Positions 7,907-49,346 of a stretch of 64,000 nucleotides of DNA are shown piece after piece. The number at the start of each line of letters is the position of its first letter. Positions within the stretch are counted from its first letter, which is position 1. Both the position numbers and the translations under genes were made by a program. The DNA is from Candidatus Woesearchaeota archaeon. Lineage in GTDB: Archaea > Nanobdellota > Nanobdellia > Pacearchaeales > GW2011-AR1. Location of the stretch: contig CAZETU010000004.1 of the NCBI GenBank assembly GCA_964514585.1, forward strand, positions 10,031-74,030, in the 5' to 3' direction. The notes beneath the pieces are model-generated. The model did not search any database and was not told the origin of the DNA. It saw only the letters and a program-made list of their open reading frames with translations.

Positions 7907-8563
7907 ATGACACTTATCCTAGGAATCGACGATGCAGGAAGAGGCCCCGTCCTAGGACCAATGACTCTAGCCGGAGTAATAATAGACAAAAAAGACGAAC
8001 AAACACTAAGAAACTGGAACGCAAAAGATTCAAAACTCCTAACCCCAAAACAACGAGGCGAAATAAAAGAAAAAATAGTCGCCCAGTTTAAATATCACAC
8101 AGAAATTTCAACTCCAAAAGAAATAGACGATCACGAAAACTTAAACCTACTAGAAGCCCAAAAAACCGCAAAAATAATCAATGAACTAACTTACGAGCTA
8201 ACTGAGAAAGTGGAAGTTATAGTAGACTGCCCCTCAACAAACATCCAATCTTGGACAAATGATGTCCAAAAACTCCTCAAAAAACCAGAAATCATTTCCC
8301 TTTCCTGTGAACACAAAGCCGACGCAAACCACCCAATAGTCTCAGCCGCCTCAATCGTAGCAAAGGAAAAACGAGAAGACGAAGTCTACAAATTAAAACT
8401 CTCATTAAAGACCGACTTCGGTTCCGGATATCCCGCAGACCCAAAAACAAAAGAGTTCATTACAGAAAATTTTAACAACCCTAAATACAAGCACATTATC
8501 AGATTCTCGTGGAACACAGTCAAAAAACTAGTCAAAGCAACTAACCAAAAAAAACTATTCTAA
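7907..8563 (+). CDS. rnhB: ribonuclease HII
   Basis: ILGIDDAGRGPVLGPM N-terminal motif and typical length of 218 aa. Confidence 0.9.
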   Translation: MTLILGIDDAGRGPVLGPMTLAGVIIDKKDEQTLRNWNAKDSKLLTPKQRGEIKEKIVAQFKYHTEISTPKEIDDHENLNLLEAQKTAKIINELTYELTEKVEVIVDCPSTNIQSWTNDVQKLLKKPEIISLSCEHKADANHPIVSAASIVAKEKREDEVYKLKLSLKTDFGSGYPADPKTKEFITENFNNPKYKHIIRFSWNTVKKLVKATNQKKLF

Positions 8564-11235: not shown

Positions 11236-11487
11236 ATGACAGACGAAAAAAGATACCTTAAAGGAGAAGAAATTTTGTATAGCGAAGATAATATGGTTCT
11301 TCGAGTAAAAATAATAGAAAATAAATCAACGATCAACCAAGTAGCATATAGACTTGAAATCGTAAAAAATCTAGTACCACATTACATTTTCGGAAAACTA
11401 AAAGTTGGAGGACAGTTTGAATTTTCTAAATTCAGAAGCTCGCCTGGATGCGGAAATTTAAGACAAATTATAGAAGATGGAAACTAA
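11236..11487 (+). CDS. hypothetical protein (83 aa)
   Basis: Its ORF overlaps the PHP gene start by 11 nt. No motif recognised. Confidence 0.4.
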   Translation: MTDEKRYLKGEEILYSEDNMVLRVKIIENKSTINQVAYRLEIVKNLVPHYIFGKLKVGGQFEFSKFRSSPGCGNLRQIIEDGN

Positions 11488-12328
11488 ATATATCGACCTC
11501 CACACCCACACTTGTAATTACTCCGACGGAGATTTAACTCCAAAAGCAATAGCAAAACAGGCGGCACTAAACGGATTAGACATCTTCGCAATCAGCGACC
11601 ATGACAACTACAGAGCATTCTTCGACGCAAAAAACACAGCCGACGCCTATGGAATAATACTCCTACCAGGAACAGAATTCACAACTCCCGATTACCACCT
11701 CCTCGCCCTGAACTACGATCCCACAGACAAAGCATTCCAAGAATTCACAGACCACTCAAGAGCCCTCCAAAGAAACGACTGCGAAAGACGAGTAGAAATC
11801 CTAAGAAACGACGACGTCCCAATAACAATGGGACAAATTGACAAAGAATACCCACTAGCCCGCCTAGGAAAAGGAAACCTAATACAAACCCTTTTCATGA
11901 ACCCCACATGCAAAGAATACATCAGCGCAAGACACCCAAACGAACCAACAAGACAAATCATCAACTACTACTTCGGGGAAACCGGGATCGCAAGCAACCT
12001 AGACCCACGACACGGCGTCACTCCGGCAGAAGCAATTCATGCAACCCACAAAGCAGGAGGAGCCATTGGAATCGCCCACCCCCAAAAAGACGTCGACACT
12101 ATTGCCGAACTTGAAATCCTAATCGACCAAGGAATCGACTTCATAGAAATCCAACCAGACTTCAAAGAAAAATACGACTACTCAAAATTCGAAACATACG
12201 CCAACGACCACGACATCCCAATATCATACGGTTCAGATTACCACGGCCCATCTATGAAACGAAACATGTTAAGCAGAGGAGAAAACGTCTTAACAAAAGG
12301 ACTAGCCAACCTTCTCAAAGTAGCCTAA
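11477..12328 (+). CDS. PHP-domain metal-dependent phosphoesterase (TrpH/YciV-like)
   Basis: IDLHTHTCNYSDG, ISDHD and GIAHP His/Asp motifs of the PHP fold. Confidence 0.8.
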   Translation: METKYIDLHTHTCNYSDGDLTPKAIAKQAALNGLDIFAISDHDNYRAFFDAKNTADAYGIILLPGTEFTTPDYHLLALNYDPTDKAFQEFTDHSRALQRNDCERRVEILRNDDVPITMGQIDKEYPLARLGKGNLIQTLFMNPTCKEYISARHPNEPTRQIINYYFGETGIASNLDPRHGVTPAEAIHATHKAGGAIGIAHPQKDVDTIAELEILIDQGIDFIEIQPDFKEKYDYSKFETYANDHDIPISYGSDYHGPSMKRNMLSRGENVLTKGLANLLKVA

Positions 12329-12362: not shown

Positions 12363-15227
12363 ATGACATATGTGAAGAAGATAGTGATGCACGGATTCAA
12401 ATCTTTCGCCAGAAAAACCGAAATTCCACTAGAAAACGCAATGAATGTAATCGTCGGACCAAACGGCTCAGGAAAATCAAACATCACAGACGCACTCTGC
12501 TTCGTTCTAGGAAGACTTTCAATTAAATCAATCCGAGCAGCAAAGGCAGCGAACCTTCTTTTCTCAGGAAACCAGACATACAAGGGTTCCAATGAAGCTT
12601 CAGTAGAATTAATCTTCGACAACTCTGACAAAACTTTCGGAGTCGACGCAAGCGAAGTAACCATTAAAAGAATCGTAAGAAAAAACGGACAATCAATCTA
12701 TAAAATCAACGGCCAAACAAAAACAAGACAAGATTTACTAGAGCTACTTTCCCAAGGCGGAATCGACCCAAATGGATTCAACATCGTCCTTCAAGGCGAA
12801 ATCCAATCTCTAGTCAAAGCAACATCAGAAGAAAGAAGAAAAATAATCGAAGAAGTCGCAGGAATTTCAATTTACGAAACAAGAAAACACAAATCCTTAA
12901 GAGAGCTAGAAAAAACCGAAGAGAAATTAAAAGAAATCTCCGCCGTTCTAAAAGAAAGAGTATCTTATTTAAAAAATCTGGATAAAGAAAGACAAGAAGC
13001 AATATCATACCAAAAACTTGAAAAAACAATAAAAAAATGCAAAGCAACACTTCTCTCAAGAAGCATGAACGAAAAAGAAATTGAAATTTCAAAACTCAAT
13101 AAAGCAATTGAAGAATTCGAAATAGAAATAGAAAAACTAAGAAAATTAATCTATGAAAAAAACGAAGGCGTAGATAAGCTCCAAGACAAAATAGTCGTAG
13201 TTAACAAACAAATCCAATCTTCAACTAGCGAAGAACAAGAAATACTACACAGAGAAATATCAGACCTAAAGGCAGATCTTGCAGGATTAAATGTCAGACG
13301 AGAAAACTTCGAGAACAGAATTATTCAAGGAAAAGAAAAAATAGATGAGCACAAAGAAAAAATCGAAAATCTAAACTTAGAAATATCAAAAATCCAAACC
13401 AGCAGCCCAGAGATTAAAAAACAACAAGAACAACAAAAAATCTTACAAGACAAATTCGACATCCTCGAACAACAAAGAAGAAAATTTTACATGTTAAAAT
13501 CAGAACTCTCAACCCTAGAAAACCAAAAATTCGAAAAAGAAAAAACATTAATCGAATCGAAAAAAGAAGTTCAACTTATCGAACAAAACATAACCTCGCT
13601 ATTTCACGAAATCAAATATGCCAAATCAGTAGAAAAAGTCAAAGAGCTGAAAAAAGAATCTGAAAAAGAGATTGACGAAATTCAAAATAAGATCGCCAAA
13701 TTAGAAGAAGAAATTTTAGAAAAGGAAAAACGCGTAGCCATTCTTGGACAAGATGTCAAAAGAGAAGAAAAATTAAAAGATGACATTACAAAATTAGACA
13801 AATGCCCAGTCTGCAAACAAGATGTTAAAAACGAATACAAAGACGATATTTCCATAAACGCCAATATAAAAATAGACGCAGCCAAAATCGAAATCGAACA
13901 AAGCATGAAAACCAGAGAAGAAAACGCGAAGAAAATCGCTTTACTAAAACAGTCCCGTTCATCCCTAAGAACAAAAATAAACGAATTAGATATCGACCAA
14001 TTCAAACTGCAAAACTCAGAAGAGAAAAAGAAGCAAATTCAAAAAATAACACTTATGCAAGAAGAATCCCAAAAAGAACTCGTAAAAATTAATGAGAAAA
14101 ATCATTCAATACGAGAAGAATTTGAAAAACTAAAAGACATCGAAGAAAAATACGACGACACAAGATTAAAACTGCAAGAACTAAGCTTCGCAGATATGGA
14201 CGTCGACACAGAAATAACAGTCAAACAAAGAGAAGTAAGTAGATTAAGTATGGAACTAAAATCCTCAACAAGAGATATAGAAGATTCAACAGTAGAACTC
14301 AAAAAAATAGAAGTCCTAATTATTGAAAAAGACAAATTAGTTGGCAAAAAAGAAATTGAAGAACAAAAGCTATATGAAAAATTCCAAAAATTCTTCGAAG
14401 AAAGAAACGAAATCCAAGACCAACAAAAAGTCTTAGAAACCGACGTCGTAGGAATGCAACATACAGCAAGAAATTTCGAAGACAAAATAAACCACAACAA
14501 AATCCAAAGAGCCCAATACAAAGCTCAAATAGATTCCATCAAATCAGAACTAACAGAATTTGGCTCTATAGAAATACTAAGTATACCAATAGATCAAATC
14601 AAAGAAAGACTCCAAAAATCTCAATTCAAAATATCAAGATTAGGAAACGTAAATCTAAGAGCCCTAGAAGTTTTCGACAAGGTTGGAGAACAAGTAAAAC
14701 TAATACAAGAAAAAGTTACAATAATCATACAAGAAAAAGAAAAAATTGAAACCATTATAGCAGAAATTGACAAGAAAAAGAAAAAGTCTTTCTTAGGAAC
14801 ACTAGAAGCTGTTAACGAATACTTCACAAGAAATTTCAAACAGCTATCCAGAAAAGGCGAAGTCTTCCTAGAACTAGAAAACAAAAAAGAACCCTTCGAC
14901 GGAGGGCTAAACATTTTAATCAAAGTCTCCCGTGGAAAATACTTCGACATCACAAGCCTATCAGGCGGAGAAAAAACAATGGTAGCCCTAGCCCTAATCT
15001 TCGCGATACAAGAATACAAACCATACTGCTTCTACGTCTTCGACGAAATCGACGCCGCCCTAGACAAACACAACTCAGAACTCCTAGCAGCCCTAATCAA
15101 AAAATACATGACAACCGGCCAATACATCGTAGTAACCCACAACGACACTCTAATCTCAGAAGCCACAAATATCTACGGAGTATCCATGCAAGAAAATATC
15201 TCTAAAATAATTAGCTTGAAACTTTAA
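12363..15227 (+). CDS. SMC-type ATPase with central CxxC zinc hook instead of a hinge (954 aa)
   Basis: SMC-type head: HGFKSFARKTEI..GPNGSGKSNITDALCFVLG, LSGGEKTMVALALIFAIQEYKPYCFYVFDEIDAALD and YGVSMQENISKI. The middle is continuous K/E-rich coiled coil with no Gly-rich hinge. LDKCPVCKQD sits at residues 481-484 of 954. Confidence 0.85.
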   Translation: MTYVKKIVMHGFKSFARKTEIPLENAMNVIVGPNGSGKSNITDALCFVLGRLSIKSIRAAKAANLLFSGNQTYKGSNEASVELIFDNSDKTFGVDASEVTIKRIVRKNGQSIYKINGQTKTRQDLLELLSQGGIDPNGFNIVLQGEIQSLVKATSEERRKIIEEVAGISIYETRKHKSLRELEKTEEKLKEISAVLKERVSYLKNLDKERQEAISYQKLEKTIKKCKATLLSRSMNEKEIEISKLNKAIEEFEIEIEKLRKLIYEKNEGVDKLQDKIVVVNKQIQSSTSEEQEILHREISDLKADLAGLNVRRENFENRIIQGKEKIDEHKEKIENLNLEISKIQTSSPEIKKQQEQQKILQDKFDILEQQRRKFYMLKSELSTLENQKFEKEKTLIESKKEVQLIEQNITSLFHEIKYAKSVEKVKELKKESEKEIDEIQNKIAKLEEEILEKEKRVAILGQDVKREEKLKDDITKLDKCPVCKQDVKNEYKDDISINANIKIDAAKIEIEQSMKTREENAKKIALLKQSRSSLRTKINELDIDQFKLQNSEEKKKQIQKITLMQEESQKELVKINEKNHSIREEFEKLKDIEEKYDDTRLKLQELSFADMDVDTEITVKQREVSRLSMELKSSTRDIEDSTVELKKIEVLIIEKDKLVGKKEIEEQKLYEKFQKFFEERNEIQDQQKVLETDVVGMQHTARNFEDKINHNKIQRAQYKAQIDSIKSELTEFGSIEILSIPIDQIKERLQKSQFKISRLGNVNLRALEVFDKVGEQVKLIQEKVTIIIQEKEKIETIIAEIDKKKKKSFLGTLEAVNEYFTRNFKQLSRKGEVFLELENKKEPFDGGLNILIKVSRGKYFDITSLSGGEKTMVALALIFAIQEYKPYCFYVFDEIDAALDKHNSELLAALIKKYMTTGQYIVVTHNDTLISEATNIYGVSMQENISKIISLKL

Positions 15228-16798
15228 TTACAAAAATCAACAACAAAATACTTAGCAGTTAACTTCTCACCAGTCGCTCTCTCAACCAACTCAGACGAAG
15301 TATACTTGTTCCCAGCCTTAAAAATTTTCTCAATCAAATACTTTGAAACATCCTTGTTTCCAGAATAATCACTATCAAAATCCCCCACATAATTCTCAAC
15401 AATATAATTATGCAACTGACTCGCCATCAACTCCCCAAGCATATAATGATGATAATAAACAGGACAACTCGCCAAATGAACTTTAGAAGCCCAATCTGGC
15501 TTATCACGACTAAAATCAATCAACTGATATTTCTTAACCATGTCCCACCAAAGCTTATTCAAATCTTGATCCGGATTCCTATACAACTCCTGCTCAAAAT
15601 TAAACATAACTAGGCACCACCTACAAAAAACAATCTGTCTCACCCTCAACATCTTACTAATATCTTCTCGAACACCCTCAACATCAGCACCACAATAACT
15701 CTTAATAAAATTAGGGTTCCTTGACTTCCTCCCAAACAACAAGGCAATAGCCTCGGTAGTATATATATTAGGACTATCTCTCAAAAGAAATGAATCGGCC
15801 TCATCATAATTCTTACCATACACCGCATGCCCCAATTCATGCAAAATCGTGTCCATCCACTTTTCATTATTTATCAAATTATTAATCGTCCTAACATCTC
15901 CCTTTCTATCCATATCAATACAACAAGCATGGGGATATTTTCCCTTACGCTCATAAAGATCACTGAACTTAATAATATCGTCAATATCAAACCCCAAACT
16001 TTCATAGTAACTCCTAGCTTTAACTAAAATATCCTCACCATAAAAAGAATCCAAATCAACATCATAAATACTCGGTCCCTCCTGGAAATAAGGATCCTCA
16101 TAATGCCACGGCCGAAGCTCACTCTTGTCAATATCATGCTTAACAGACAAATAATCATTTATCTCCCCCATCAATTTTCTAAATGGAGCATCAGTTTTTT
16201 CCTCAAGCTCATCAAAAACCTTTTTCAACTCATCAATATTTTGTTCTTGAAATTCCAACGACATCAAATAATAATTCTCAAAACCCAAACTCTTAGCAAG
16301 TTTATTCCTCAACTTAATAATCTCAACGATAGGACCACAACAAATCTCCCCTCTTTTCTTGCTAGCCTCCCAAGCCTCTTTTAATTTACCAGAATCTTTC
16401 TCTTTAGACAAAATTTTCTTAATATCATTATCACTAACATCCTCTCCACCAAGACTAGGACGAAAAACATTAAACATCTTTTTCACGGCTCCTTCTTTTC
16501 TAGTAATCTCCTCCACCAAAGCTTTATCTCCAGCTGCCTCCAAACAAAGATTATATAATATTTTCAACTTACGCTTCAACTTAGGCTCCAAACCCTCAAT
16601 TTCCAAAAATTTCTTCACCTTCCCAAAATCATCAGAATTATTAAAAAAATTCTTAATCTTCAAGTCCGCCTCAGTATACGCCTCATACTTTTCATCCTCA
16701 CCACTCAAAACAGCATCCCAATAAGAACAAGTCTCACCACGATACAACTCCCCATAACCTCGTTCTTTCTCATCAACAAAAGCACCAGAGTCTTCCAT
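15224..16798 (-). CDS. gluzincin metallopeptidase (M2/M3-like)
   Basis: HELGH followed about 27 residues later by TEAIALLFG (HExxH...E). I cannot separate the M2 and M3 families by eye. Confidence 0.6.
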   Translation of the reverse strand: MEDSGAFVDEKERGYGELYRGETCSYWDAVLSGEDEKYEAYTEADLKIKNFFNNSDDFGKVKKFLEIEGLEPKLKRKLKILYNLCLEAAGDKALVEEITRKEGAVKKMFNVFRPSLGGEDVSDNDIKKILSKEKDSGKLKEAWEASKKRGEICCGPIVEIIKLRNKLAKSLGFENYYLMSLEFQEQNIDELKKVFDELEEKTDAPFRKLMGEINDYLSVKHDIDKSELRPWHYEDPYFQEGPSIYDVDLDSFYGEDILVKARSYYESLGFDIDDIIKFSDLYERKGKYPHACCIDMDRKGDVRTINNLINNEKWMDTILHELGHAVYGKNYDEADSFLLRDSPNIYTTEAIALLFGRKSRNPNFIKSYCGADVEGVREDISKMLRVRQIVFCRWCLVMFNFEQELYRNPDQDLNKLWWDMVKKYQLIDFSRDKPDWASKVHLASCPVYYHHYMLGELMASQLHNYIVENYVGDFDSDYSGNKDVSKYLIEKIFKAGNKYTSSELVERATGEKLTAKYFVVDFCN

Positions 16799-17430: not shown

Positions 17431-18630
17431 TTAATAATAACTAGTTTCTACTTCTTCCATTGGCTTTTCTTTTCGAGTAAGAAGGACAATTAAAACTGCA
17501 AGGAGTACAACAAAGATAATCACAAGGATTACTGTTAAAGCAACAACAGATGACGAGACATTAGTCCCAACAACGTTAGCTCCGAAAACAGCTTGTTTAC
17601 CGTCAACATCTACAGAGAAAGTATAAGTTCCAATTGCAGCATCATCGTCTGCAGTAACTGTTATAGAAACTGTTTCGCTAGCATCTGGGCCAACAGTAAC
17701 TACTGAAGGAGCCGATACGCTCAAAACATCTCCGGAAACAGCACTAATCTGGAAAACCTTAACATTATCTGCCGAGTTAACAATAACCAATTCATAAGTT
17801 ACTGTTTCTCCTGCGTTTAAGTCCTTACTTTTTACAGCCGACAAAACCATAGTAGAAGCCGCATCATCAATACTGATAAGCTTCTTCACAATAGTTTCAG
17901 TGTCTTCATTGTAAACCACGATTTCCATTTCATAAACACCGCTATCAGCGTTCGTTGGAATCTTCAAGTATACAATTTCTTCATGAGAGTCTTCTTCGTG
18001 ATCTTCTTCTCCGTCTTCGATAGGAATCAAGTCTCTAGCATAACCTCGAGTGGAAACACCCAAAGCTGGAATAGAGGCAACAACGTAAACGTCGTCCATC
18101 CTATTGTAACCATTGTTCTTTATAACAATAGAAACAGGAATAACTTCTCCGCCTTGAACTTTAGAAGTATAGTCAACAGATAAGATTTCAAGAGTATATG
18201 ATTCTCTCTGCATCTTAACAGTATAGTCAACTTCAGATCTATCGTTCTTAGAAACAACTTCAACATAAAGAGTATATTCTTCAGATAAGTCGTTAGCGTC
18301 AGAAGGAAGTCTCAAAGATAAAAGCTTAGTATATGTTGTACCATCTTCGATATCGAATCTAGTAGTAGAAGCCGAAACATCGTCCCGGTGACCTTCCATA
18401 TATACCTTAACTTTAACGTCACTCATGTCTTTACTCGCGTCGAAAATAACCTTAACGGGGACTGTACCTGAAACGTCACCAGCCATATTAGTATTTTGAT
18501 TTAACCAAACTCCATTGAATTCGGTATCAATACCAGTAACCAGTTCGTCAGCAGAGGCAAAGCCTACAACCATCAAAGTTAAAACTGCAATAAAAGCAAC
18601 CAAAAGCACATTTCTTTTCATATTTTTCAT
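17431..18630 (-). CDS. cell-surface (S-layer-like) protein with signal peptide and C-terminal TM anchor
   Basis: Start trimmed to MKNMKRNVLLVAFIAVLTLMVVGFASA. The body is beta-rich and Thr/Val/Ser-rich, and the C-terminal helix is VVALTVILVIIFVVLLAVLIVLL. Confidence 0.6.
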   Translation of the reverse strand: MKNMKRNVLLVAFIAVLTLMVVGFASADELVTGIDTEFNGVWLNQNTNMAGDVSGTVPVKVIFDASKDMSDVKVKVYMEGHRDDVSASTTRFDIEDGTTYTKLLSLRLPSDANDLSEEYTLYVEVVSKNDRSEVDYTVKMQRESYTLEILSVDYTSKVQGGEVIPVSIVIKNNGYNRMDDVYVVASIPALGVSTRGYARDLIPIEDGEEDHEEDSHEEIVYLKIPTNADSGVYEMEIVVYNEDTETIVKKLISIDDAASTMVLSAVKSKDLNAGETVTYELVIVNSADNVKVFQISAVSGDVLSVSAPSVVTVGPDASETVSITVTADDDAAIGTYTFSVDVDGKQAVFGANVVGTNVSSSVVALTVILVIIFVVLLAVLIVLLTRKEKPMEEVETSYY

Positions 18631-18761
18631 TTTGAATTTAGTTAAAATTGAAACAAATGAAAAGTATATAAAGCTTACCATTGTTGTAATTCCAGAAGGA
18701 CGAAAACACTTAAAAAGTATACTGAAGTATACAATATGTCACAAAAGATAGTAATAAAAAA

Positions 18762-38422: not shown

Positions 38423-39526
38423 CTATTTATTCATATCAAAATATTTAGCCAACTTCGGACCATGTTGACCCTGATAATGAGAGCCCTTTCCCTTCTCTCC
38501 ATATAAAACCTCTGGGAGATCTTTCATACGATAAAACTTGAAACTCCCTATCCTTTGTCCATCCGTCAATAAAAAAGGCTGGCCAAAATTCCTAACCTCA
38601 AGAGTTGCTTGCGCTCTAAAATTAGGATCAAAAAACCCTGCATAATGAACACGAACTTCTCCAGCATCCGTTTCGATATCAACCATTTCCGAACAAAGAT
38701 TTGCAGGGATGCTAATAATCTCCTTACTAGAAAGAATATAGAAAGAATTAGAATTAACAATAAGCCCCTTACCCAAACCCTTAGATAAATAGACTTTATC
38801 AAAATACTCTGAAAAGGGAAGATCTCTTTTAGAAAGATCGACAGGAGGAGCATTTTCCTTAGAAACAAACCCAGGAAACCTTTCATCCAAATCTAAAGTT
38901 AAAGAAAATATTCCGTTAAAAAGCCCTTTACCTTCACTCAAAAGACATTCAGTATCATTGTTTGACTCAAACAATAAACCATAATTTTTATTAATTTTTT
39001 TCAAACAATCTTCATCAAGACAACAAGTGTTAGAGTCAAAAAATCTAAGCTGATTAAGACAATCCCCTTTGCGAACAATAATATCAAAAGACCTAGGATA
39101 TATTTCAACCCACAACTTCCCACTATAACCATAAGGTATCTTATCAAAAGAAGTTCCATTTTCAGCTATTAATCTAACATGAACATCAATTCTACCAATA
39201 GAACTTTTAGGATTAACTCTCCCAGAAATTCCCGGAGGCAATTTCAAATATTCTTGCAACTCAAAAACATAAACACAATTTTTATGCAAAAATCCATTCT
39301 TACTCAAATCAACGTCATAAGAAGAATTATTTTTCAAAAACTCTTCAAAATTTCCATTAGAAGAAATAGAAGAAAAAGGCAAACAATAACCCATCTCACC
39401 TAACCTCAAGTCCAAAGAAGAAGGTTGTATTTGATTTTCGTTTACAGCCTCCTTTGAACAAATCAACCCTCTTTCAATTAATTTCTTAATACCCTTATCG
39501 GAATAAACGCCCCCTTCTTCAATCAT
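38423..39526 (-). CDS. long-form dCTP deaminase-like protein (DCD family, about 365 aa type)
   Basis: Two dUTPase-fold-like halves. IQPSSLDLRLG and GRIDVHVRL motifs resemble dCTP deaminase. The 367-aa length matches the long DCD family. Confidence 0.65.
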   Translation of the reverse strand: MIEEGGVYSDKGIKKLIERGLICSKEAVNENQIQPSSLDLRLGEMGYCLPFSSISSNGNFEEFLKNNSSYDVDLSKNGFLHKNCVYVFELQEYLKLPPGISGRVNPKSSIGRIDVHVRLIAENGTSFDKIPYGYSGKLWVEIYPRSFDIIVRKGDCLNQLRFFDSNTCCLDEDCLKKINKNYGLLFESNNDTECLLSEGKGLFNGIFSLTLDLDERFPGFVSKENAPPVDLSKRDLPFSEYFDKVYLSKGLGKGLIVNSNSFYILSSKEIISIPANLCSEMVDIETDAGEVRVHYAGFFDPNFRAQATLEVRNFGQPFLLTDGQRIGSFKFYRMKDLPEVLYGEKGKGSHYQGQHGPKLAKYFDMNK

Positions 39527-39607
39527 ACAAAAAAATGATTAATCCCATTTATATAAATTATTGTGATTAGTTAAGCTATAAATAAAATTAAAAATTAGCC
39601 CACTCTA

Positions 39608-39691
39608 CTAAATATTACTTCCACCGCTACCAAAAGCCCTGTTACCCAGAACACTATCACTAAGCTCGCCGACAACCGACAACTCAATCAC
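39608..39691 (-). pseudogene. remnant of a dUTPase 3' end (last ~25 codons only)
   Basis: Manual translation VIELSVVGELSDSVLGNRAFGSGGSNI* parallels the C-terminus of the intact dut (VDIETVDELSDSVRGEAAFGSG*). The nucleotide similarity continues into the downstream flank (aatattactt). A stop lies immediately upstream. Confidence 0.7.
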
Positions 39692-39777
39692 TCAAAATCA
39701 TAACTAACAAAAAATTATTCATCTACATATTGTTACAATAAGGTAAACTATAAATAACAACACTGCCTCAACAACTT

Positions 39778-40236
39778 ATGGAACAATACAACTTCCAATA
39801 CTGCCCAAAAATAATAATATTCTCAAAAGACAAATCAAAAGTACTCTTATGCAAAAGAAAAGGAGAAAACGACTACGACGGAACATTTGGGTTCCCGGGA
39901 GGAAAAATGGAAACAACCGACAACTCAATCATCGAAGGACTAGCAAGAGAGAAAAACGAAGAACTAAGCCCATCCTTCAAAATCAAAATCTTAAAAACAT
40001 TCACAAACAACATCCTATTCAAAAAGAAAAACGGGAAATCCATGATTCTGCCATACTACCTAGCAATACATGAAAACGGAGAGGTAAAAATAAATGAAGA
40101 ATATTCAGAATACAAATGGGTCCAAATAAAAGATTTAGAAGAATTCGGCCCCAGAATGCCAAACATCCCTGAAGTTACAGAAAAAATGAAAAAACTATTA
40201 ACAATCTCAAAAGAACACGACTTCGAAATAATCTAA
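39778..40236 (+). CDS. NUDIX hydrolase
   Basis: Nudix box GFPGGKMETTDNSIIEGLAREKNEEL. Confidence 0.85.
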   Translation: MEQYNFQYCPKIIIFSKDKSKVLLCKRKGENDYDGTFGFPGGKMETTDNSIIEGLAREKNEELSPSFKIKILKTFTNNILFKKKNGKSMILPYYLAIHENGEVKINEEYSEYKWVQIKDLEEFGPRMPNIPEVTEKMKKLLTISKEHDFEII

Positions 40237-40282
40237 ACCCAAAACAATAAACAAAATTAAATAACTCTAATTAAATATTACT

Positions 40283-40921
40283 TCAACCACTTCCAAAAGC
40301 CGCTTCTCCTCGAACAGAATCTGACAATTCATCTACAGTCTCAATATCCACCATTGCAACCGGCGCAATCACAACTTGAGCAACTTGATCTCCAGTTCTA
40401 ATCACAAAATCCTCATCACTTGTATTCAAGAAAACAACCCCATATTCTCCAGTATAAGTATACTCGATTACTCCCCCAAGAATACAAATCCCCCTCTTAT
40501 ATGCCAAACCACTCTTCCCCCGAATCGAAGCGAAATAACCCTCAGGCAATTCCATCGCAATCCCCGTAGAAATCAACTGTCTTTTTCCAGCCGGCACAAC
40601 ATAATCTTCACAAGAATGCAAATCTAAAGCAGCATCACCAGGATGTCCATAACTAGGAATGATAGCATTCTCCTTCAATTTTTTAATCTTCACTTTAACC
40701 GCCCCCTCGTCAATCAACTCAAACCGCTTAACCCTTCGACCATCCTCAAAAATCTTATCCCCACAAAACTCATCCAACAACCTAACCCAAGTCACGCCAT
40801 CACCGTAAAGAGCCTTATACACAACTAACATCTGATCCGTATTATCACAATTCCGCGCAACATCAACAATCTCATATTCGCCCCCCTTAAAATGCCGATA
40901 CCGCTCTCCAACCTCAACCAT
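40283..40921 (-). CDS. dut: DUF1653 domain fused to trimeric dUTPase
   Basis: Start trimmed to MVEVGERYRHFKGGEYEIV (the DUF1653-like YRHFKGG..Y..V.......VVY.ALYG....WVR pattern). dUTPase motifs follow: GDAALDL, RGKSG, GVIEYTYTGE and RGEAAFGSG. Confidence 0.8.
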   Translation of the reverse strand: MVEVGERYRHFKGGEYEIVDVARNCDNTDQMLVVYKALYGDGVTWVRLLDEFCGDKIFEDGRRVKRFELIDEGAVKVKIKKLKENAIIPSYGHPGDAALDLHSCEDYVVPAGKRQLISTGIAMELPEGYFASIRGKSGLAYKRGICILGGVIEYTYTGEYGVVFLNTSDEDFVIRTGDQVAQVVIAPVAMVDIETVDELSDSVRGEAAFGSG

Positions 40922-40961
40922 AAAAAACAAAACAACTAACACTTTATAAAAATTATTACAC
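40698..40961. repeat. direct repeat copy A (DUF1653 coding region plus its promoter-proximal flank)
   Basis: 264 nt aligning without gaps to 40982-41245, including ccataaaaaacaaaac...ctttataaaaattattacac upstream of both start codons. Confidence 0.8.
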
Positions 40962-40977
40962 TCTAATCTCCACTTCT

Positions 40978-41205
40978 TCAAACCGAACTCTCATCAATCA
41001 ACTCAAACCGTTTAACCCTCCGTCCATCATCAAAAACTTTATCTCCACAAAACTCATCAAGCGACCTGTCCCAAGTCCCACCCTCGCCATAAAGCGCCTT
41101 ATACTTAACTAACATCTGACCTGCATTATCACAATTCGGCGCAACATCAATAATCTCATACTCGCCACCCTTAAAATGCCGATATCTCTCTCCAGCCTCA
41201 ACCAT
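40978..41205 (-). CDS. stand-alone DUF1653 protein (paralogue of the dut N-terminal domain)
   Basis: MVEAGERYRHFKGGEYEIIDVAPNCDNAGQMLVKYKALYGEGGTWDRSLDEFCGDKVFDDGRRVKRFELI is near-identical in pattern to residues 1-70 of the fusion protein. Confidence 0.75.
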   Translation of the reverse strand: MVEAGERYRHFKGGEYEIIDVAPNCDNAGQMLVKYKALYGEGGTWDRSLDEFCGDKVFDDGRRVKRFELIDESSV

Positions 41206-41245
41206 AAAAAACAAAACCCAAAATACTTTATAAAAATTATTACAC
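40982..41245. repeat. direct repeat copy B
   Basis: See copy A. By eye, roughly 80-85% of positions are identical. Confidence 0.8.
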
Positions 41246-41941
41246 CCTGATATCTACTTTCTCAAAATACTCAACAGCAACAGCCTTCAATTTCTCCAAA
41301 TATTCCTCACGCACATCCAATTCCGTCACCAAACTCTTATCTATCATCTCATGCCCAGATTTAAACCCCTGCAAAAATAAATTCTTAGGCTTGCCCCCAC
41401 AAACATCATTCAACCACCGACCCATTTCCTCAACAACACTCTCGTCATGAAACTTATTCAAAATCGTCGTCCTAAACTCGTACTTCCCAAAATCATAAAT
41501 AATCTTCATCGACTTCTCAACCTTCTCAATATTAACATCAACCCCGACAACATTAGAATAATTCGCCCGAGAACTCTTAACATCCATCGCAATATAATCA
41601 ATCAAACCCTCGTCAATCAACTCTTTCAACTTGTCTGGAAACGACCCATTAGTATCAATCTTCACCAAATAGCCCATGGCCTTAATCTTCTTCAAAAAAC
41701 CAACATCCAAAGTCATCAACGGCTCACCACCAGTCACACAAACAGCGTCCAGCTTCCCACGACGCCTCTCTAAAAATTCCAAAATATAACTCTCAGAAAA
41801 AATCTCACTATCACCTCCAAGTACCAACAATGGATTATAACAAAACCCACAACGAAAATTACAACCAAATAAAAAAATGGTACACGCAACTTTCCCTGGA
41901 TAATCAACCAGAGTAGTCCTTTGCAAACCTAAAATTTTCAT
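41240..41941 (-). CDS. nrdG: anaerobic ribonucleotide reductase activating protein (radical SAM)
   Basis: CNFRCGFCYNP radical-SAM cluster motif. Start trimmed to ATG 41941 (MKILGLQ), preceded by GGAGGTG. Confidence 0.85.
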   Translation of the reverse strand: MKILGLQRTTLVDYPGKVACTIFLFGCNFRCGFCYNPLLVLGGDSEIFSESYILEFLERRRGKLDAVCVTGGEPLMTLDVGFLKKIKAMGYLVKIDTNGSFPDKLKELIDEGLIDYIAMDVKSSRANYSNVVGVDVNIEKVEKSMKIIYDFGKYEFRTTILNKFHDESVVEEMGRWLNDVCGGKPKNLFLQGFKSGHEMIDKSLVTELDVREEYLEKLKAVAVEYFEKVDIRV

Positions 41942-41951
41942 AAACACCTCC

Positions 41952-41979
41952 AAAAAAATTAAAAGGGGGGAAATCCCCC
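41952..41979 (-). terminator. G/C hairpin plus T-tract between nrdD 3' region and nrdG
   Basis: The minus strand reads GGGGGATTTCCCCCCTTTTAATTTTTTT. This is a possible attenuator or processing site. Confidence 0.3.
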
Positions 41980-41986
41980 AGGAAAT

Positions 41987-42109
41987 TTAACAATCGGAAC
42001 AGAACATAGAACGATCCTTAAACTCTTCTAGTTTACCGTCGTTCCATCGAGCAGTCGGTCTCAAATATCCGCAAACCCTGCTCCAAACTTCACACTTAGT
42101 TCTCCCCAT
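41987..42109 (-). CDS. NrdD glycyl-radical C-terminal segment, encoded out of frame with nrdD (either a separate 40-42 aa ORF or a frameshifted 3' end)
   Basis: Manual translation: M(PM)GRTKCEVWSRVCGYLRPTARWNDGKLEEFKDRSMFCSDC*. RVCGY is the class III RNR glycyl-radical motif. GGAGGTGA lies 5 nt upstream of the ATG at 42109. Confidence 0.7.
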   Translation of the reverse strand: MGRTKCEVWSRVCGYLRPTARWNDGKLEEFKDRSMFCSDC

Positions 42110-44330
42110 TGGCATCACCTCCAAAATTTAGTTGAGATTCAAAATTAACACTCGAAACACTAGGGGCCGACAAATTGTCCTCAACAACAACATTGGCAAC
42201 CTTCAAAACAGGAACTTCTGCAACCGGAGCAACGACGACTGGAGCTTCAGCAATAGGGGCTTCAGCAATTTCCTCAGGTTGTACCTCAGGCAAAACATCT
42301 TTAGCAACAGGAGTTGTATGTGCCTCAGCTTCAGCAATATCAGCATCACACTTAGGACAATATTCATGTTCCCCAGCCAAATAACCATGAATCGGACAAA
42401 TCGAAAACGTAGGAGTAATTGTAAAATAAGGCAAATGATAATTATTAGAAATCTTTTTAACCATCGTCCTAACAGCATCCTTACTCAGCTTCTCCCCAAC
42501 AAAAGTATGAAACACCGTTCCCCCAGTATACTTACATTGCAAGTCATCCTGCAAATCAAGCGCCTCAAAAACATCATCAGTATGATTCACTGCCAACTGT
42601 GTCGAATTAGTATAATACGGCTTCGCCCCGTCCTGGTACGCCTTTTCATTCGCAACCAAAATTCGGCCAAACCTTTTCTTATCAATCCGTGCAAACCTAT
42701 AAGTCGTACCCTCACCCGGAGTCGCCTCAAGATTGTAAATACTATTAGTCTCTTCCTGATATTCCTCAAGCTTCTCTCTCATAAAATCCAAAACCTTAAT
42801 AGAAAAAGCCATCCCCTTCTCCGTCGCAATATCCTCACCAGGCATAAAATTAGTAATCGACTCATTCATACCCAAAAGTCCAATCGTCGAAAAATGATTC
42901 TTCCAATACTCTCCAAACCGTTGATGAACCTGTCTCAAATAAAACCTAGTATACGGATAAAGCCCCACATTAATAAACTGCTCAATCGTCTTCCTCTTAA
43001 TCTCAAGGCTCTCCTTCGCCAACTCCATCAATCTAGCCAGCCGCGCCATATAGTCATCTTCACTCGTCGACACATAACCAAGTCTAGGCATATTAATCGT
43101 CACAACCCCAATCGAACCAGTCAAGGGATTAGAACCAAATAAACCACCACCCCTCTTCTTTAGTTGAGTATTATCAATACGAAGACGACAACACATACTT
43201 CTAGCGTCCTCAGGATTCATATCTGAATTAACAAAATTGGAAAAATAAGGTATACCATACTTCGCCGTCATTTCCCAAAGTAAATCGTGGGAAGGATTGT
43301 CCCAATCAAAATTTTTCGTAATATTATATGTCGGAATAGGAAAAGTAAAAACCTGCCCCGTCGCATCGCCCTCAAGCATGCATTCAGCAAACGCCCGATT
43401 AATCATTTCCATCTCAACCTCAAAATCCCCATAAGTCTCGCTCTGCGGTTGCCCACCAATAACAACATGTTCATCCTTCATATAAGACGGAATCTCCAAG
43501 TCCATAGTAATATTTGTAAACGGCGTCTGAAACCCAACCCTCGTCGGCACAGCCATATTAAAAATAAACTCCTGCATCGCCTGCTTCACCTGCTTATAGT
43601 CCAACTTATCATAACGAACAAATGGAGCAAGTAAAGTATCAAAATTAGAAAACGCCTGAGCCCCGGCAGTCTCACCTTGTAAAGTATAAAAGAAGTTCAC
43701 CATCTGCCCCAAAGCAGTCCTCAAATGCTTAGCAGGCTTACTCTCAACTTTCCCCTTAACGCCCTTAAACCCAACCGTCAACAAATCCTTCAAATCCCAA
43801 CCAACACAATAAGCACCAAGAGTCCCCAAGTCATGAATATGCAAATCACCAGCCTCGTGAACTTTCCGAATCGCCTCAGGATAAATCCGCCTCATCCAAT
43901 AATTCGTAATAATCTTCGTCGCAATATAATTATTCAACCCCTGCAACGAAAACCCCATATTAGAATTCTCCTTAACCATCCAATCATTCAAACCAATATA
44001 ATCATCAACTGCCTCAATCGTATCAAACAACCCCTTAACATCCCGTAGCTCCTGTCGGCTCTGTCTATACAAAATAAACGATTTAGAAACCTTCGCATGC
44101 CCCTCCTCAATTAAAACCTTCTCAACAAGATCCTGAACCTCTTCAACGTCAGGTATACCAAAATCCCCATAAGTTTCATCTAACTTTTCACAAACTAAGC
44201 CTGCAAGATGCACCGACTTCTCTTTATCTTTCCCGCCAACAGCCTTAACCGCCTTCCAAATAGCGTCGGAAATTTTATCTTTCTGAAAGAATACAACACA
44301 CCCATCTCTTTTTCTTATTTTTTTAACCAT
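42096..44330 (-). CDS. nrdD: anaerobic (class III) ribonucleoside-triphosphate reductase, lacking the glycyl-radical motif in frame
   Basis: N-terminal ATP-cone (KRDGCVVFFQKDKISDAI), catalytic core, and C-terminal Zn site CPIHG...CPKC. An ~80-residue PAE-rich tail then ends GGDANGEN*. Confidence 0.9.
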   Translation of the reverse strand: MVKKIRKRDGCVVFFQKDKISDAIWKAVKAVGGKDKEKSVHLAGLVCEKLDETYGDFGIPDVEEVQDLVEKVLIEEGHAKVSKSFILYRQSRQELRDVKGLFDTIEAVDDYIGLNDWMVKENSNMGFSLQGLNNYIATKIITNYWMRRIYPEAIRKVHEAGDLHIHDLGTLGAYCVGWDLKDLLTVGFKGVKGKVESKPAKHLRTALGQMVNFFYTLQGETAGAQAFSNFDTLLAPFVRYDKLDYKQVKQAMQEFIFNMAVPTRVGFQTPFTNITMDLEIPSYMKDEHVVIGGQPQSETYGDFEVEMEMINRAFAECMLEGDATGQVFTFPIPTYNITKNFDWDNPSHDLLWEMTAKYGIPYFSNFVNSDMNPEDARSMCCRLRIDNTQLKKRGGGLFGSNPLTGSIGVVTINMPRLGYVSTSEDDYMARLARLMELAKESLEIKRKTIEQFINVGLYPYTRFYLRQVHQRFGEYWKNHFSTIGLLGMNESITNFMPGEDIATEKGMAFSIKVLDFMREKLEEYQEETNSIYNLEATPGEGTTYRFARIDKKRFGRILVANEKAYQDGAKPYYTNSTQLAVNHTDDVFEALDLQDDLQCKYTGGTVFHTFVGEKLSKDAVRTMVKKISNNYHLPYFTITPTFSICPIHGYLAGEHEYCPKCDADIAEAEAHTTPVAKDVLPEVQPEEIAEAPIAEAPVVVAPVAEVPVLKVANVVVEDNLSAPSVSSVNFESQLNFGGDANGEN

Positions 44331-44373
44331 CTATTTTTCCTTATGTATTTATGTTACTCTTTGAGCAACCATC

Positions 44374-44817
44374 TTATTTTCCTAATTTAGCAAGCTCATC
44401 TTTGAACTCATCAATATCTGCAAAGTCACGGTATACCGCAGCAAATCGAACATACGCAACCTTATCGACTTTCTTCAGCTTATTCATAACAATCTCCCCG
44501 ATACGCGTACTCTTAATGTCCTTATCTTTAGCAACCCGATAAACATTCGCCTCAACCTCATCCACAATTCTTTCTATCTCAGCACTCGTGAATGGCCTCT
44601 TCTGAAGATTATTATCAATTCCCTCAAAAAGCTTAGCTCGCGAAAATTTCTGCCTCCGACCGTCCTTTTTAATAACGTTCAAATCCAACTCCACTCGCTC
44701 ATACGTAGTAAACCGCTTACCACATTTCAAGCACTCTCGCCGCCTCCGAGTCAAAGATTCACTATCTCTTTTATCAGTAACTTTCGTTTCAGCAGCACAA
44801 CAGTATGGACATTGCAT
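44374..44817 (-). CDS. nrdR: NrdR transcriptional repressor (Zn-ribbon + ATP-cone)
   Basis: Start trimmed to MQCPYCCAAETKVTDKRDS..RRRRECLKCGKRFTTYE. The C-terminus KVDKVAYVRFAAVYRDFADIDEF closely parallels bacterial NrdR. Confidence 0.9.
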   Translation of the reverse strand: MQCPYCCAAETKVTDKRDSESLTRRRRECLKCGKRFTTYERVELDLNVIKKDGRRQKFSRAKLFEGIDNNLQKRPFTSAEIERIVDEVEANVYRVAKDKDIKSTRIGEIVMNKLKKVDKVAYVRFAAVYRDFADIDEFKDELAKLGK

Positions 44818-44836
44818 TTTTGTTATTTTATAATGA

Positions 44837-44852
44837 ATACAAGATATTGTAT
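44837..44852. promoter_or_regulatory. NrdR-box-like palindrome 1
   Basis: ATACAAGATATTGTAT, with arms ATACAA/TTGTAT, 20-35 nt upstream of the nrdR ATG. Confidence 0.6.
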
Positions 44853-44868
44853 CTCGCACCCCTTTTTG

Positions 44869-44884
44869 CCACAATAAATTGTGG
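44869..44884. promoter_or_regulatory. NrdR-box-like palindrome 2
   Basis: CCACAATAAATTGTGG, with arms CCACAAT/ATTGTGG. Its centre is 32 bp from the centre of box 1. Confidence 0.6.
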
Positions 44885-45042
44885 GCGTAAGAGAATATTA
44901 ACCAAAAGAGTATTTAAAGATTATTGTCCTCCAGCTACTATTTATGTTAACTATAGTAAACATTGTAGACTGACAGTTACTTTTTTCAAATGATTACGCA
45001 TCTTTAAGAACCTCTCACATCAAAACTCCCATAAAGAATTCA

Positions 45043-46287
45043 TTAATAAAAAGAAAACCTTTTACACAACTCCCCAACCTCTAACTTAATCTTAGAACAA
45101 ACAGATTCATCAGACAAATTTTCAATAACATCAGCAATCCAATTCCCAACGATAATCATTTCATTCTCCTTCATACCCATAGTTGTCAAAATCGGGACAC
45201 CCAACCTAATTCCAGATGGTTTAAACGGAGTAGATGGATCAAACGGAACAGTGTTGGCGTTAGTCACAATTCCCGCTTCCTCCAAAGCAACAGCAACCTC
45301 TCGACCCCTGCCCGGCTCACCAATAGCAGAAGTCTTAATCAAATCAATCAAAATCAAATGATTATCGGTCCCATCACTAACCAACTTAATATTCCTCTTC
45401 TTCAAGGTCTCCGCCAAAATAAAACAATTATCAATAATCTGCTGAGAATATTTTTTAAACTCTGGCTTTAACGCCTCGCCAAAAGCAATTGCCTTAGCCG
45501 CAATCGTATGCTCATGAGGACCGCCCTGCAACCCCGGGAAAACGGCCTTATCAATTGCCTTACCAAATTCTTCCTTACACATAATTATTGCACTCCTAGG
45601 ACCTCTCAAAGTCTTATGCGTTGTCGTCGTCACAAAATCAAAATCCGGAAACGGAGTTGGATGAACACCACTAGCAACTAAACCAGCAACATGAGAAATA
45701 TCCGCCAAACAATAAGCTCCAATCTCCTTAGCAATTAAAGCGAAGGCCTTAAAATCAATCTCTCGAGGATAAGCCGTCGCCCCACAAACAATCATCTTCG
45801 GCCTCTCGCGCAAAGCAATCTCTCTAACCTTCTCCATGTCAACAATTCCAGTTTCCTCCTCAACACCATAAGAAACAAAATCATAGTCTTTCCCAGAAAA
45901 ATTCACCTTCGACCCATGAGTCAAATGTCCACCATGCATCAAATCCATTCCAAGAATCTTATCCCCCTTCTCCAAAACCGCAACATAAACCGCCATATTC
46001 GCAGGACTCCCAGAATTCGGCTGCACATTTACATGTTCAGCCCCAAACAATTTCTTCGCCCGCTCAATCGCCAAATTCTCAACCTTATCAACAAACTCAT
46101 TCCCTTGATAATACCTCTTCCCAGGATAACCCTCTGCATACTTATTATTAAAAACCGAACCACACGCCGCCAAAACATCCTTAGAACAAAAATTCTCCGA
46201 AGGAATCATATTCAAAGTCGTCTTCTGTCGCTCCAACTCGTCAACAACGATCTCATTCACCTCAGAATCCAAAATCCAAAAAGTCAT
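45043..46287 (-). CDS. glyA: serine hydroxymethyltransferase
   Basis: TTTTHKTLRGPR PLP-lysine motif over 414 aa. Confidence 0.95.
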   Translation of the reverse strand: MTFWILDSEVNEIVVDELERQKTTLNMIPSENFCSKDVLAACGSVFNNKYAEGYPGKRYYQGNEFVDKVENLAIERAKKLFGAEHVNVQPNSGSPANMAVYVAVLEKGDKILGMDLMHGGHLTHGSKVNFSGKDYDFVSYGVEEETGIVDMEKVREIALRERPKMIVCGATAYPREIDFKAFALIAKEIGAYCLADISHVAGLVASGVHPTPFPDFDFVTTTTHKTLRGPRSAIIMCKEEFGKAIDKAVFPGLQGGPHEHTIAAKAIAFGEALKPEFKKYSQQIIDNCFILAETLKKRNIKLVSDGTDNHLILIDLIKTSAIGEPGRGREVAVALEEAGIVTNANTVPFDPSTPFKPSGIRLGVPILTTMGMKENEMIIVGNWIADVIENLSDESVCSKIKLEVGELCKRFSFY

Positions 46288-48512: not shown

Positions 48513-48581
48513 AAAAAACCCAATCTCCTATCCTTAATAAAAAAATATATACTCCAATATATATATTCCCCCTCAAGCTTC

Positions 48582-49346
48582 TCAATCGACTCCTTCCTTC
48601 TCCTTCTCATTCATGCCCTTCGTACTAAAAACAATCTCTTTCTCCTCAGTATCCTCAATCTCCACCTTCACAATCTTGTAAACATCCTCATGTATTTCTT
48701 CAACACTTCTCATTTTCCCATCCGGAGTACACTTAATAACAGACCAACCAAATTTATCAGCACAATACAAAAACGCCTCAGAAGCATCATTAAGATGATT
48801 TATATCCGCCTCATGTATATCTCTTTTATTCCCACCAACATAATCTCGATGCCCCTTTTCATCAACCAAAATCTGAGCAACAGCAGGATCAGCATAAAGT
48901 AAAATTTGACAATCAGGCTTCGGTATTTCAAAAATACTATATTCTAATTCATGCAGCCAATCCAAAAACTTATCTCTTTCAATAATATCTTTAATTTTAC
49001 CAGATTGATGTCCCATATTCGCAGAAACATAACGATTACTAATACCTATTTCTCCATTTTCAAGACGCTTCCTAGCATCCTTTGATACAGCAAAACGATC
49101 ACAGGCATAAAAAATAGATGCCCTATAAGGACCAACTTCCTCAGCACTACCAAATTTCCCAGTCAAATAATCTTCAACCAATGCTGCACTTCTTTCTCCA
49201 TATTGAGGAAAATCCAAAACAAAAACTGGGTACCCCTCTTCTTTCAACCTCTTAACCAACACCTCGGTCTGTGTTCCCTTTCCACTACCATCAATTCCAT
49301 CAATAACAATCAACTTCCCCCTTTTCATACAAAAATCAAAGTTCAT
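48582..49346 (-). CDS. tmk: thymidylate kinase
   Basis: LIVIDGIDGSGKGTQ P-loop and SNRY(DRY-like) motif. An alternative start at 49328 (MKRGKLIV) is possible. Confidence 0.85.
   Translation of the reverse strand: MNFDFCMKRGKLIVIDGIDGSGKGTQTEVLVKRLKEEGYPVFVLDFPQYGERSAALVEDYLTGKFGSAEEVGPYRASIFYACDRFAVSKDARKRLENGEIGISNRYVSANMGHQSGKIKDIIERDKFLDWLHELEYSIFEIPKPDCQILLYADPAVAQILVDEKGHRDYVGGNKRDIHEADINHLNDASEAFLYCADKFGWSVIKCTPDGKMRSVEEIHEDVYKIVKVEIEDTEEKEIVFSTKGMNEKEKEGVD

Follow-up and report, generated by a model that had tools for sequence, protein, structure and literature searches.

Can an SMC protein give up its hinge and be joined at the tips of its arms by a zinc hook of the kind found in Rad50? 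Reviews treat the hinge as a defining SMC feature, and describe SMC by hinge and kleisin and Rad50 by zinc hook and Mre11 (PMC10586767). The question is raised by a gene at positions 12363-15227 (+) of a 64,000-nucleotide stretch of contig CAZETU010000004.1, from assembly GCA_964514585.1 of a Candidatus Woesearchaeota archaeon; this whole stretch is called the window below. The gene is complete, running from an ATG start to a stop codon at 15225-15227, and encodes a protein of 954 residues. We consider it likely that the product is a condensin-type SMC of a Pacearchaeota-like (DPANN, Nanoarchaeota) archaeon in which the hinge has been replaced in place by a Rad50-type zinc hook, a domain of ~165 residues having given way to a hook of ~13 residues on otherwise full-length SMC arms.

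Heads and arms without a hinge

The motifs of the ATPase head follow each other along the protein as HGFKSFA, GPNGSGKSN (residues 32-40), DALCFVLG, LSGGEK, FYVFDEIDAALD and YGVSM. The N-terminal half of this ABC ATPase head (residues 1-168; 12363-12866, + strand as all features of the gene), where the alignment with the Pyrococcus Smc head covers residues 1-241, contains the Walker A motif GPNGSGKS (residues 32-39; 12456-12479) and the Q-loop glutamine Q144. The C-terminal half (residues 829-954; 14847-15224), identified by alignment with Protein Data Bank (PDB) structures and by invariant motifs, contains the signature LSGGEK (residues 866-871; 14958-14975), the Walker B/D-loop segment (residues 890-901; 15030-15065) and the H-loop histidine H926. 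These elements are invariant among 34 relatives of 65-78% identity, the residues concerned being G32-N40, Q144, S867, G868, G869, E870, D894-D901 and H926.

The profile and structure databases agree with this picture. In Pfam, SMC_N matched residues 3-945 with 193 bits, and the other matches were to generic AAA models alone. Among the NCBIfam models, TIGR02169 (SMC_prok_A) scored 522 bits and TIGR02168 (SMC_prok_B) 505 bits, while five Rad50 models scored 52-76 bits (cut-offs 700-1087) and the ASRP model NF045487 scored 97 bits (cut-off 300), matching the N-terminal part alone. The whole protein stays below the equivalog cut-offs of both SMC models (729.4 for TIGR02169 and 567.35 for TIGR02168), a shortfall that is explained by the missing hinge segment at profile positions ~480-700. 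The best PDB matches were the head and joint structures of Pyrococcus Smc (5xei 6e-98, 5xns 5e-86, 4i99 6e-79), and Rad50 heads reached an E-value of 6e-13 at best. Identity to the Pyrococcus Smc head is ~45% over the aligned parts, and the joint region is kept. Judged by these comparisons the head is of the SMC type and not of the Rad50 type, as a preliminary description of the locus had claimed from the motifs. Since the hinge is lacking and the scores fall short of the equivalog cut-offs the protein is not a plain member of the SMC family, and it is by its heads, arms and phylogeny that we file it as SMC.

The region between the two head halves was modelled with AlphaFold2. The full-length model (34-sequence alignment; mean predicted local distance difference test (pLDDT) 70.9, arms good) consists of a helix over residues 169-476, a turn over residues 477-489 and a helix over residues 490-733 and onwards. 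The ascending arm helix (residues 169-476; 12867-13790) is broken at residues 287-290, 345-350 and 417-422, and the descending arm with the head-proximal helices (residues 490-828; 13830-14846) at residues 590-592, 609-614, 734-742 and 761-766. The last two breaks lie in the joint region, and the alignment with 5xei (head plus joint) spans residues 710-954. A Foldseek search with the full-length model returned SMC, Smc5-6 and condensin proteins in general and added little. TIGR02169 aligned residues 3-492 of the protein with its positions 1-479. In BLASTP against a canonical neighbour of 1156 residues (P0146) both arms were collinear, and the neighbour was ~200 residues longer around the hinge. 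Taken between conserved head-proximal anchors, the arms of the hook proteins measure 311 and 277 residues, against medians of 331 and 288 residues in hinge-bearing neighbours. The SMC arms are essentially retained, at near-normal length.

The absence of a hinge domain, the second claim of the preliminary description, was upheld by every approach employed. Pfam SMC_hinge (PF06470) did not match the 954-residue protein even at E<=1. A custom hidden Markov model (HMM), trained on the hinges of neighbouring canonical SMCs, recognised 102 hinge-bearing representatives at 1e-8 to 1e-71, mostly 1e-40 or better, and matched neither the window protein nor 34 hook-bearing representatives at E<=10. In the AlphaFold2 topology a 13-residue turn alone separates the two arm helices, and this leaves no room for a cryptic hinge, which is ruled out by the three observations together.

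The apex of the coiled coil

The turn between the arms (residues 477-489, KLDKCPVCKQDVK; 13791-13829) is read as a zinc hook on the basis of the AlphaFold2 loop, profiles and Foldseek. The sequence LDKCPVCKQDV lies at the midpoint of the protein, and its CPVC (C481-P-V-C484; 13803-13814), found exactly where it had first been reported, supplies the two cysteines per protomer that are putative zinc ligands. There are five cysteines in all (residues 46, 226, 481, 484 and 889), and chance alone would place 5.5e-4 CxxC motifs no more than 10 residues to either side of the centre. Of 120 close homologues, 119 have C-[PF]-x-C at their midpoint, and in the remaining one the CxxC is displaced by an intein. 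CxxC is likewise present in all 34 hook-type representatives of 50% identity clusters, and in each of the 73 genes that cover the apex among 77 related loci from GTDB species-representative genomes (37-78% identity). When 27 apex segments were aligned, the two cysteines were the sole invariant columns; the proline was conserved in at least 90%, and the flanks ranged from 17 to 57% identity. The midpoint CxxC is not a chance motif, and the conservation among orthologues on which the earlier reading of a hook depended is evident.

The family consensus of the apex, l-D-x-C-P-[ILV]-C-K-x-x-[IV]-[TS]-x-E-H, resembles the hook of Pyrococcus furiosus Rad50, KCPVCGRELTDEHREEL. Pfam Rad50_zn_hook (PF04423) matched six of seven family apex fragments with E-values from 1.7e-5 to 1.3e-3, one of them above the gathering score. 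Archaeal Rad50 models of NCBIfam matched family apex fragments where the models themselves have the hook (Rad50_Sulf 1.6e-8 and 2.8e-7, PRK03918 3.6e-6), and the SMC models did not. When all PDB sequences were searched with a profile of the 27 apex segments, the top matches were the P. furiosus Rad50 hooks (6zff 7.7e-7, 1l8d 1.2e-6) with the CxxC in register; the human Rad50 hook 5gox followed at 0.065. A separate AlphaFold2 model of residues 420-545 (pLDDT 91.4) has a helix at 423-476, a loop at 477-489 and a helix at 490-544. Compared by Foldseek with 350,542 PDB chains, it ranked 1l8d chains A and B at the top (target-normalised template modelling (TM) score 0.82-0.83, root-mean-square deviation 2.5-2.6 Å), and 6zff scored a TM of 0.76-0.77. 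By sequence, profile and predicted fold the apex is a putative hook of the Rad50 type.

The origin of this hook may be conceived in two ways. The hook segment may have come from an archaeal rad50-type gene at the root of the lineage; or the hinge was deleted and the hairpin tip thus created gained a CxxC metal site de novo, in which case the likeness to Rad50 is convergent. Convergence would fit with a similarity confined to ~15 residues (CP-x-C-x3-[LIV]-[TS]-x-E-H) between flanks of generic coiled coil, with apex scores that are modest (19-33 bits), and with the fact that ASRP models match the apex too (E ~3e-4), so that hook-like motifs recur across SMC-like families. However, the match reaches the E-H pair 8-9 residues past the CxxC, as in the P. 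furiosus hook, and archaeal Rad50, rather than bacterial SbcC or the eukaryotic protein, provides the best matches, with the NCBIfam archaeal models aligned exactly at their hook positions. We therefore hold convergence to be unlikely and favour acquisition. The preliminary description had spoken of a chimera between SMC and Rad50; as an architecture this stands by sequence, profile and model, whereas descent of the hook from a rad50 gene is deduced from similarity rather than demonstrated.

Distribution, descent and genomic neighbourhood

Exhaustive HMMER searching covered 1.84 billion cluster representatives, of which the best 150 were classified. Among these, 34 proteins carried the hook (37-64% identity; full-length ones mostly 946-1023 residues, the rest fragments), 102 were hinge-bearing SMCs and 15 had neither hook nor hinge, about half of the latter being fragments. 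Hook and hinge are mutually exclusive in this set, as not one protein carried both. The hook SMC gene is found in at least 77 species-level genomes at identities down to 37%, and the labels of these genomes are Pacearchaeota, Woesearchaeota, Nanoarchaeota or plain archaeon.

When head domains were placed in a neighbour-joining tree (109 sequences, 453 columns), one hinge-less clade emerged with 100/100 bootstrap support, composed of 19 full-length hook proteins and four proteins of ~800 residues with neither feature. The other 86 SMCs are nearly all hinge-bearing. The heads fall among archaeal SMCs in a tree that held no Rad50 sequences, in keeping with the preliminary view that they do not belong inside Rad50. 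Branching within the hinge-less clade is weak (56/100), and the clade adjoins hinge SMCs, some of them Woesearchaeota-labelled; of six nearest hinge-bearing SMCs examined, the three that were named carry that label. The distribution fits a single exchange of hinge for hook early in a Pacearchaeota-type lineage, with the hook lost again on occasion.

The neighbourhood of the gene was compared by clustering 1,075 open reading frames (ORFs) that flank the 77 related loci. RNase HII is located close upstream of the SMC gene in 51 of the 77, nearly always on the same strand and with a median gap of ~120 nucleotides; in the window it lies at 7907-8563, ~3.8 kb from the SMC gene. Genes for an S-layer-like membrane protein, an endonuclease-IV-like protein and DnaG recur at these loci as well. 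Immediately upstream in the window is a PHP-domain gene (11477-12328), which is present in two of the 77 loci, and a gene for an M3/M32-like peptidase (15224-16798) is convergent with the SMC gene. No ScpA, ScpB, Mre11, Rad50 or second SMC was detected among the scanned ORFs of the window or in 10 kb beyond each of its ends, where Pfam scans covered ~40 of ~50 window ORFs and the remaining ~10 were mostly recognised by eye. Nor was any kleisin or ScpB, Mre11, Rad50 or second SMC present among the conserved or motif-matching neighbours at the 77 loci, and a regular expression for the ScpA N-terminal motif gave no match on the flanking ORFs. The kleisin and second SMC for which the preliminary description had proposed a search were thus not found among the scanned ORFs of the window, in 10 kb beyond each end or among the conserved or motif-matching neighbours at the 77 loci, which is an answer of locus-level scope.

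The gene could in principle encode a specialised paralogue, engaged for instance in DNA-end tethering, repair or defence, with a canonical hinge SMC encoded at another locus. The part of the genome covered, 64 kb of window plus 20 kb, leaves place for such a partner; the hook of Rad50 can bridge complexes (review PMC7752040), and DNA-metabolism genes, namely RNase HII, the endonuclease-IV-like protein and DnaG, are among the conserved neighbours. On the other hand, the head motifs and joint region are all kept at ~45% identity to Pyrococcus Smc, and the conserved neighbourhood is of a housekeeping character without a nuclease or defence gene. Furthermore, the named nearest hinge SMCs are labelled Woesearchaeota, and those hook-less proteins of the hinge-less clade that have a name are labelled Pacearchaeota, a split of labels that leans towards replacement over duplication, though the labels overlap. 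A paralogue beside a hinge SMC is accordingly rather improbable.

One may also imagine that the CPxC functions without zinc between protomers, as an intramolecular disulfide or redox switch or as a stabiliser of a monomeric hairpin, and that dimerisation proceeds via heads or arms only. The loss of hook and distal arms in some Pacearchaeota relatives of ~800 residues suggests that hook dimerisation is not indispensable in the lineage. Yet both cysteines are absolutely conserved at the same distances at which the flanks have diverged, their register is that of the Rad50 hook, in which the CxxC of two chains bind one Zn (1l8d), and one CxxC by itself is not enough for a tetrahedral site, making a role without shared zinc very unlikely. 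That the protein is a Rad50/SbcC or an ASRP (ClsN/Sph) with unusually SMC-like heads, as the apex motif and the weak ASRP and Rad50 matches might hint, is extremely unlikely given SMC scores of 505-522 bits with Rad50 and ASRP far below their cut-offs, no Mre11 gene nearby in 77 loci, and a length of 954 residues with SMC-like arms of ~300 residues where ASRP has ~590 in total; for the protein as a whole, NCBIfam scores and PDB ranking rule this out.

Some observations weigh against an SMC with a hook in place of its hinge and must be set beside the evidence for it. The window protein's own apex fragment had no match to Pfam Rad50_zn_hook, which is attributable to Y492 at a position where most relatives carry H, and its NCBIfam matches were weak (ASRP 3.5e-4, Rad50_Sulf 0.003). 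Hence the hook that the preliminary description recognised in this apex is assigned from the family profile, NCBIfam and the structure model. The Foldseek E-values of the apex model were weak (0.015-0.021), as is expected for a helical hairpin, and the ranking agrees with the sequence evidence. The heads of the full-length AlphaFold2 model were poorly predicted (pLDDT <50) from the shallow alignment. The head tree is by neighbour-joining only and without an outgroup. Finally, kleisin (ScpA) and ScpB were not found near the SMC gene in the window or at the related loci; this local absence says little, since a canonical Woesearchaeota-like SMC in a related metagenome was also without an adjacent scpA (two loci returned).

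Several relatives differ in length from the hook SMC described here. The ~800-residue forms (P0141, P0143, P0145 and P0152, in clusters that include PIU75690.1 and OYT41877.1) measure ~780-800 residues and have no hinge and no CxxC. They fall within or next to the hook clade, and they are devoid of the hook and of ~75 residues of each distal arm. In two of the four clusters members were found on several independent contigs, and the named ones are labelled Pacearchaeota and annotated as hypothetical. At the other extreme, hook SMCs of ~1480-1490 residues (P0102, P0126, P0131 and loci L062, 8375-12850, and L067, 3611-8083) have an insertion of ~530 residues just past the Walker A region, in which P0102 shows Pfam intein and LAGLIDADG matches; two hook proteins of ~1480 residues among the best 150 probably carry inteins. 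Hinge SMCs of DPANN-like relatives (P0158, P0175, P0204, P0218-P0221 and P0196) occur in discrete length classes of ~1150, ~950 and ~830 residues, indicative of classes of arm length, and P0196 (968 residues) matches the first half of the hinge model only.

The remainder of the window deserves brief mention. Between RNase HII and the SMC gene lie two small membrane-protein-like ORFs, a Ppx/GppA-like gene, a MazE/PhoU-like gene, an 83-residue ORF and the PHP-domain gene. The ~10 ORFs that were mostly recognised by eye comprise EF-1a, EF-2, RNA polymerase, RNR, SHMT, Tmk/ThyX, RFC, ribosomal proteins, an RNase Z-like protein and a few small ones. A 308-residue ORF at 56042-56968 (+) combines an N-terminal winged-helix-like segment, a long acidic linker rich in P, E and K and a C-terminal domain; the idea that it might be a divergent kleisin received no support, as Pfam gave no match and the PDB none of significance. 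Genes of deoxynucleotide metabolism are densely clustered at 38423-49346. By Pfam it includes a dCTP deaminase-like gene, NUDIX, dUTPase and a radical-SAM activase, and by eye an anaerobic ribonucleotide reductase-like ORF of 744 residues, a serine hydroxymethyltransferase-like ORF, a 742-residue ORF that starts like thymidylate kinase and a second thymidylate-kinase-like ORF.

The base composition of the window is strongly asymmetric (forward strand A 23058, C 16960, G 7550, T 16432; GC skew about -0.4). Genes on the + strand have a GC skew at third codon positions between -0.4 and -0.84 and those on the - strand one between +0.74 and +0.86, so that the bias goes with the DNA strand and not with the coding strand. 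As the cumulative skew runs monotonically throughout, neither an origin nor a terminus lies in the window. An LpxC-like gene in this archaeal genome (37249-38166, +; Pfam LpxC E 1.2e-17) has a third-position skew of -0.19, a departure from the rest of the strand that suggests recent acquisition. The S-layer-like gene (17431-18681, -) is likewise atypical (-0.10).

Comparison with known systems

By analogy with Rad50 (1l8d), two protomers would each supply C481 and C484 to one tetrahedral Zn2+, and this bridge may hold the arm tips together as a constitutive homodimer. By analogy with Smc-ScpAB, ATP would engage and release the heads, bridged by kleisin, and the dimer, together with a putative kleisin, may act on chromosomal DNA in entrapment, loop extrusion or segregation. 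Such a mechanism is plausible since an engineered Bacillus subtilis Smc with the P. furiosus Rad50 hook in place of its hinge, Smc(Zh), sustains normal growth on rich medium (Burmann et al. 2017; PMC5344682), from which it follows that an architecture of SMC heads and hook can work; its authors conclude that for chromosome segregation it does not matter which fold the dimerisation domain has (PMC5344682). The reverse exchange has precedent too, as Rad50 works in fission yeast when fitted with a MukB hinge (PMC6969161).

It is possible, and we put it forward tentatively, that a whole Pacearchaeota-type DPANN lineage has swapped its hinge for an archaeal Rad50-type hook and has this protein, acting with kleisin, as its sole SMC. 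If true, nature has already run the Smc(Zh) experiment; the hinge fold, along with the DNA-binding and gate roles ascribed to it, would be dispensable for core SMC activity, and the ~800-residue derivatives would have dropped even the hook. A natural and conserved hook SMC would constitute independent evolutionary evidence that what matters is stable dimerisation at the apex and not the hinge fold. It would also offer a compact natural protein for testing models of hinge-dependent loading and loop extrusion, and document an exchange of domains between the SMC and Rad50 lineages. Hook SMCs are annotated merely as chromosome segregation protein SMC, and surveys that gather SMCs by hinge homology, such as the sequence analysis in PMC5344682, would miss them by design. 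A large survey of archaeal SMCs placed DPANN proteins under canonical aSMC with no mention of a hook (PMC8665677). The full-text literature searched, from which most subscription journals are absent, yielded the engineered swaps and the ASRP hook but no account of a natural SMC that bears a zinc hook, so that an earlier description is possible.

Compared with the Smc of Smc-ScpAB (TIGR02169; Pyrococcus Smc, 5xei and 4i99), the window protein has the same ATPase motifs, the same joint and the same antiparallel arms of ~300 residues, collinear up to the apex, where it has a CPxC turn instead of the hinge (PF06470, ~165 residues).

Families of SMC-like proteins with hooks are already known, comprising Rad50/SbcC, ASRP/ClsN (PMC9389158) and many LmuB proteins (PMC10586767). 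None of these has SMC-type heads and arms. With the hook of Rad50/SbcC (PF04423; 1l8d, 6zff) the window protein shares the CP-x-C that tips an antiparallel coiled coil and the E-H that follows it, but it differs in its SMC-type heads, in arms that follow the SMC profiles and in having no Mre11-like gene among the scanned ORFs of the window or the conserved neighbours at the 77 loci. The gene for the Mre11/SbcD nuclease, the partner of Rad50, is usually encoded adjacently. ASRP (ClsN/coalescin, Sph1/2; NF045487; PMC9389158) is an archaeal family of the SMC superfamily which likewise has a zinc hook instead of a hinge; at ~590 residues it is a separate family, to which the window protein scores 97 bits where 300 are required. 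A further parallel is Smc(Zh), identical in design with SMC heads and arms and a Rad50-type hook. That protein is an artificial bacterial construct, whereas the window protein represents a natural archaeal family from at least 77 species-level genomes, and it is the natural counterpart of a hinge-to-hook swap so far made only in the laboratory.

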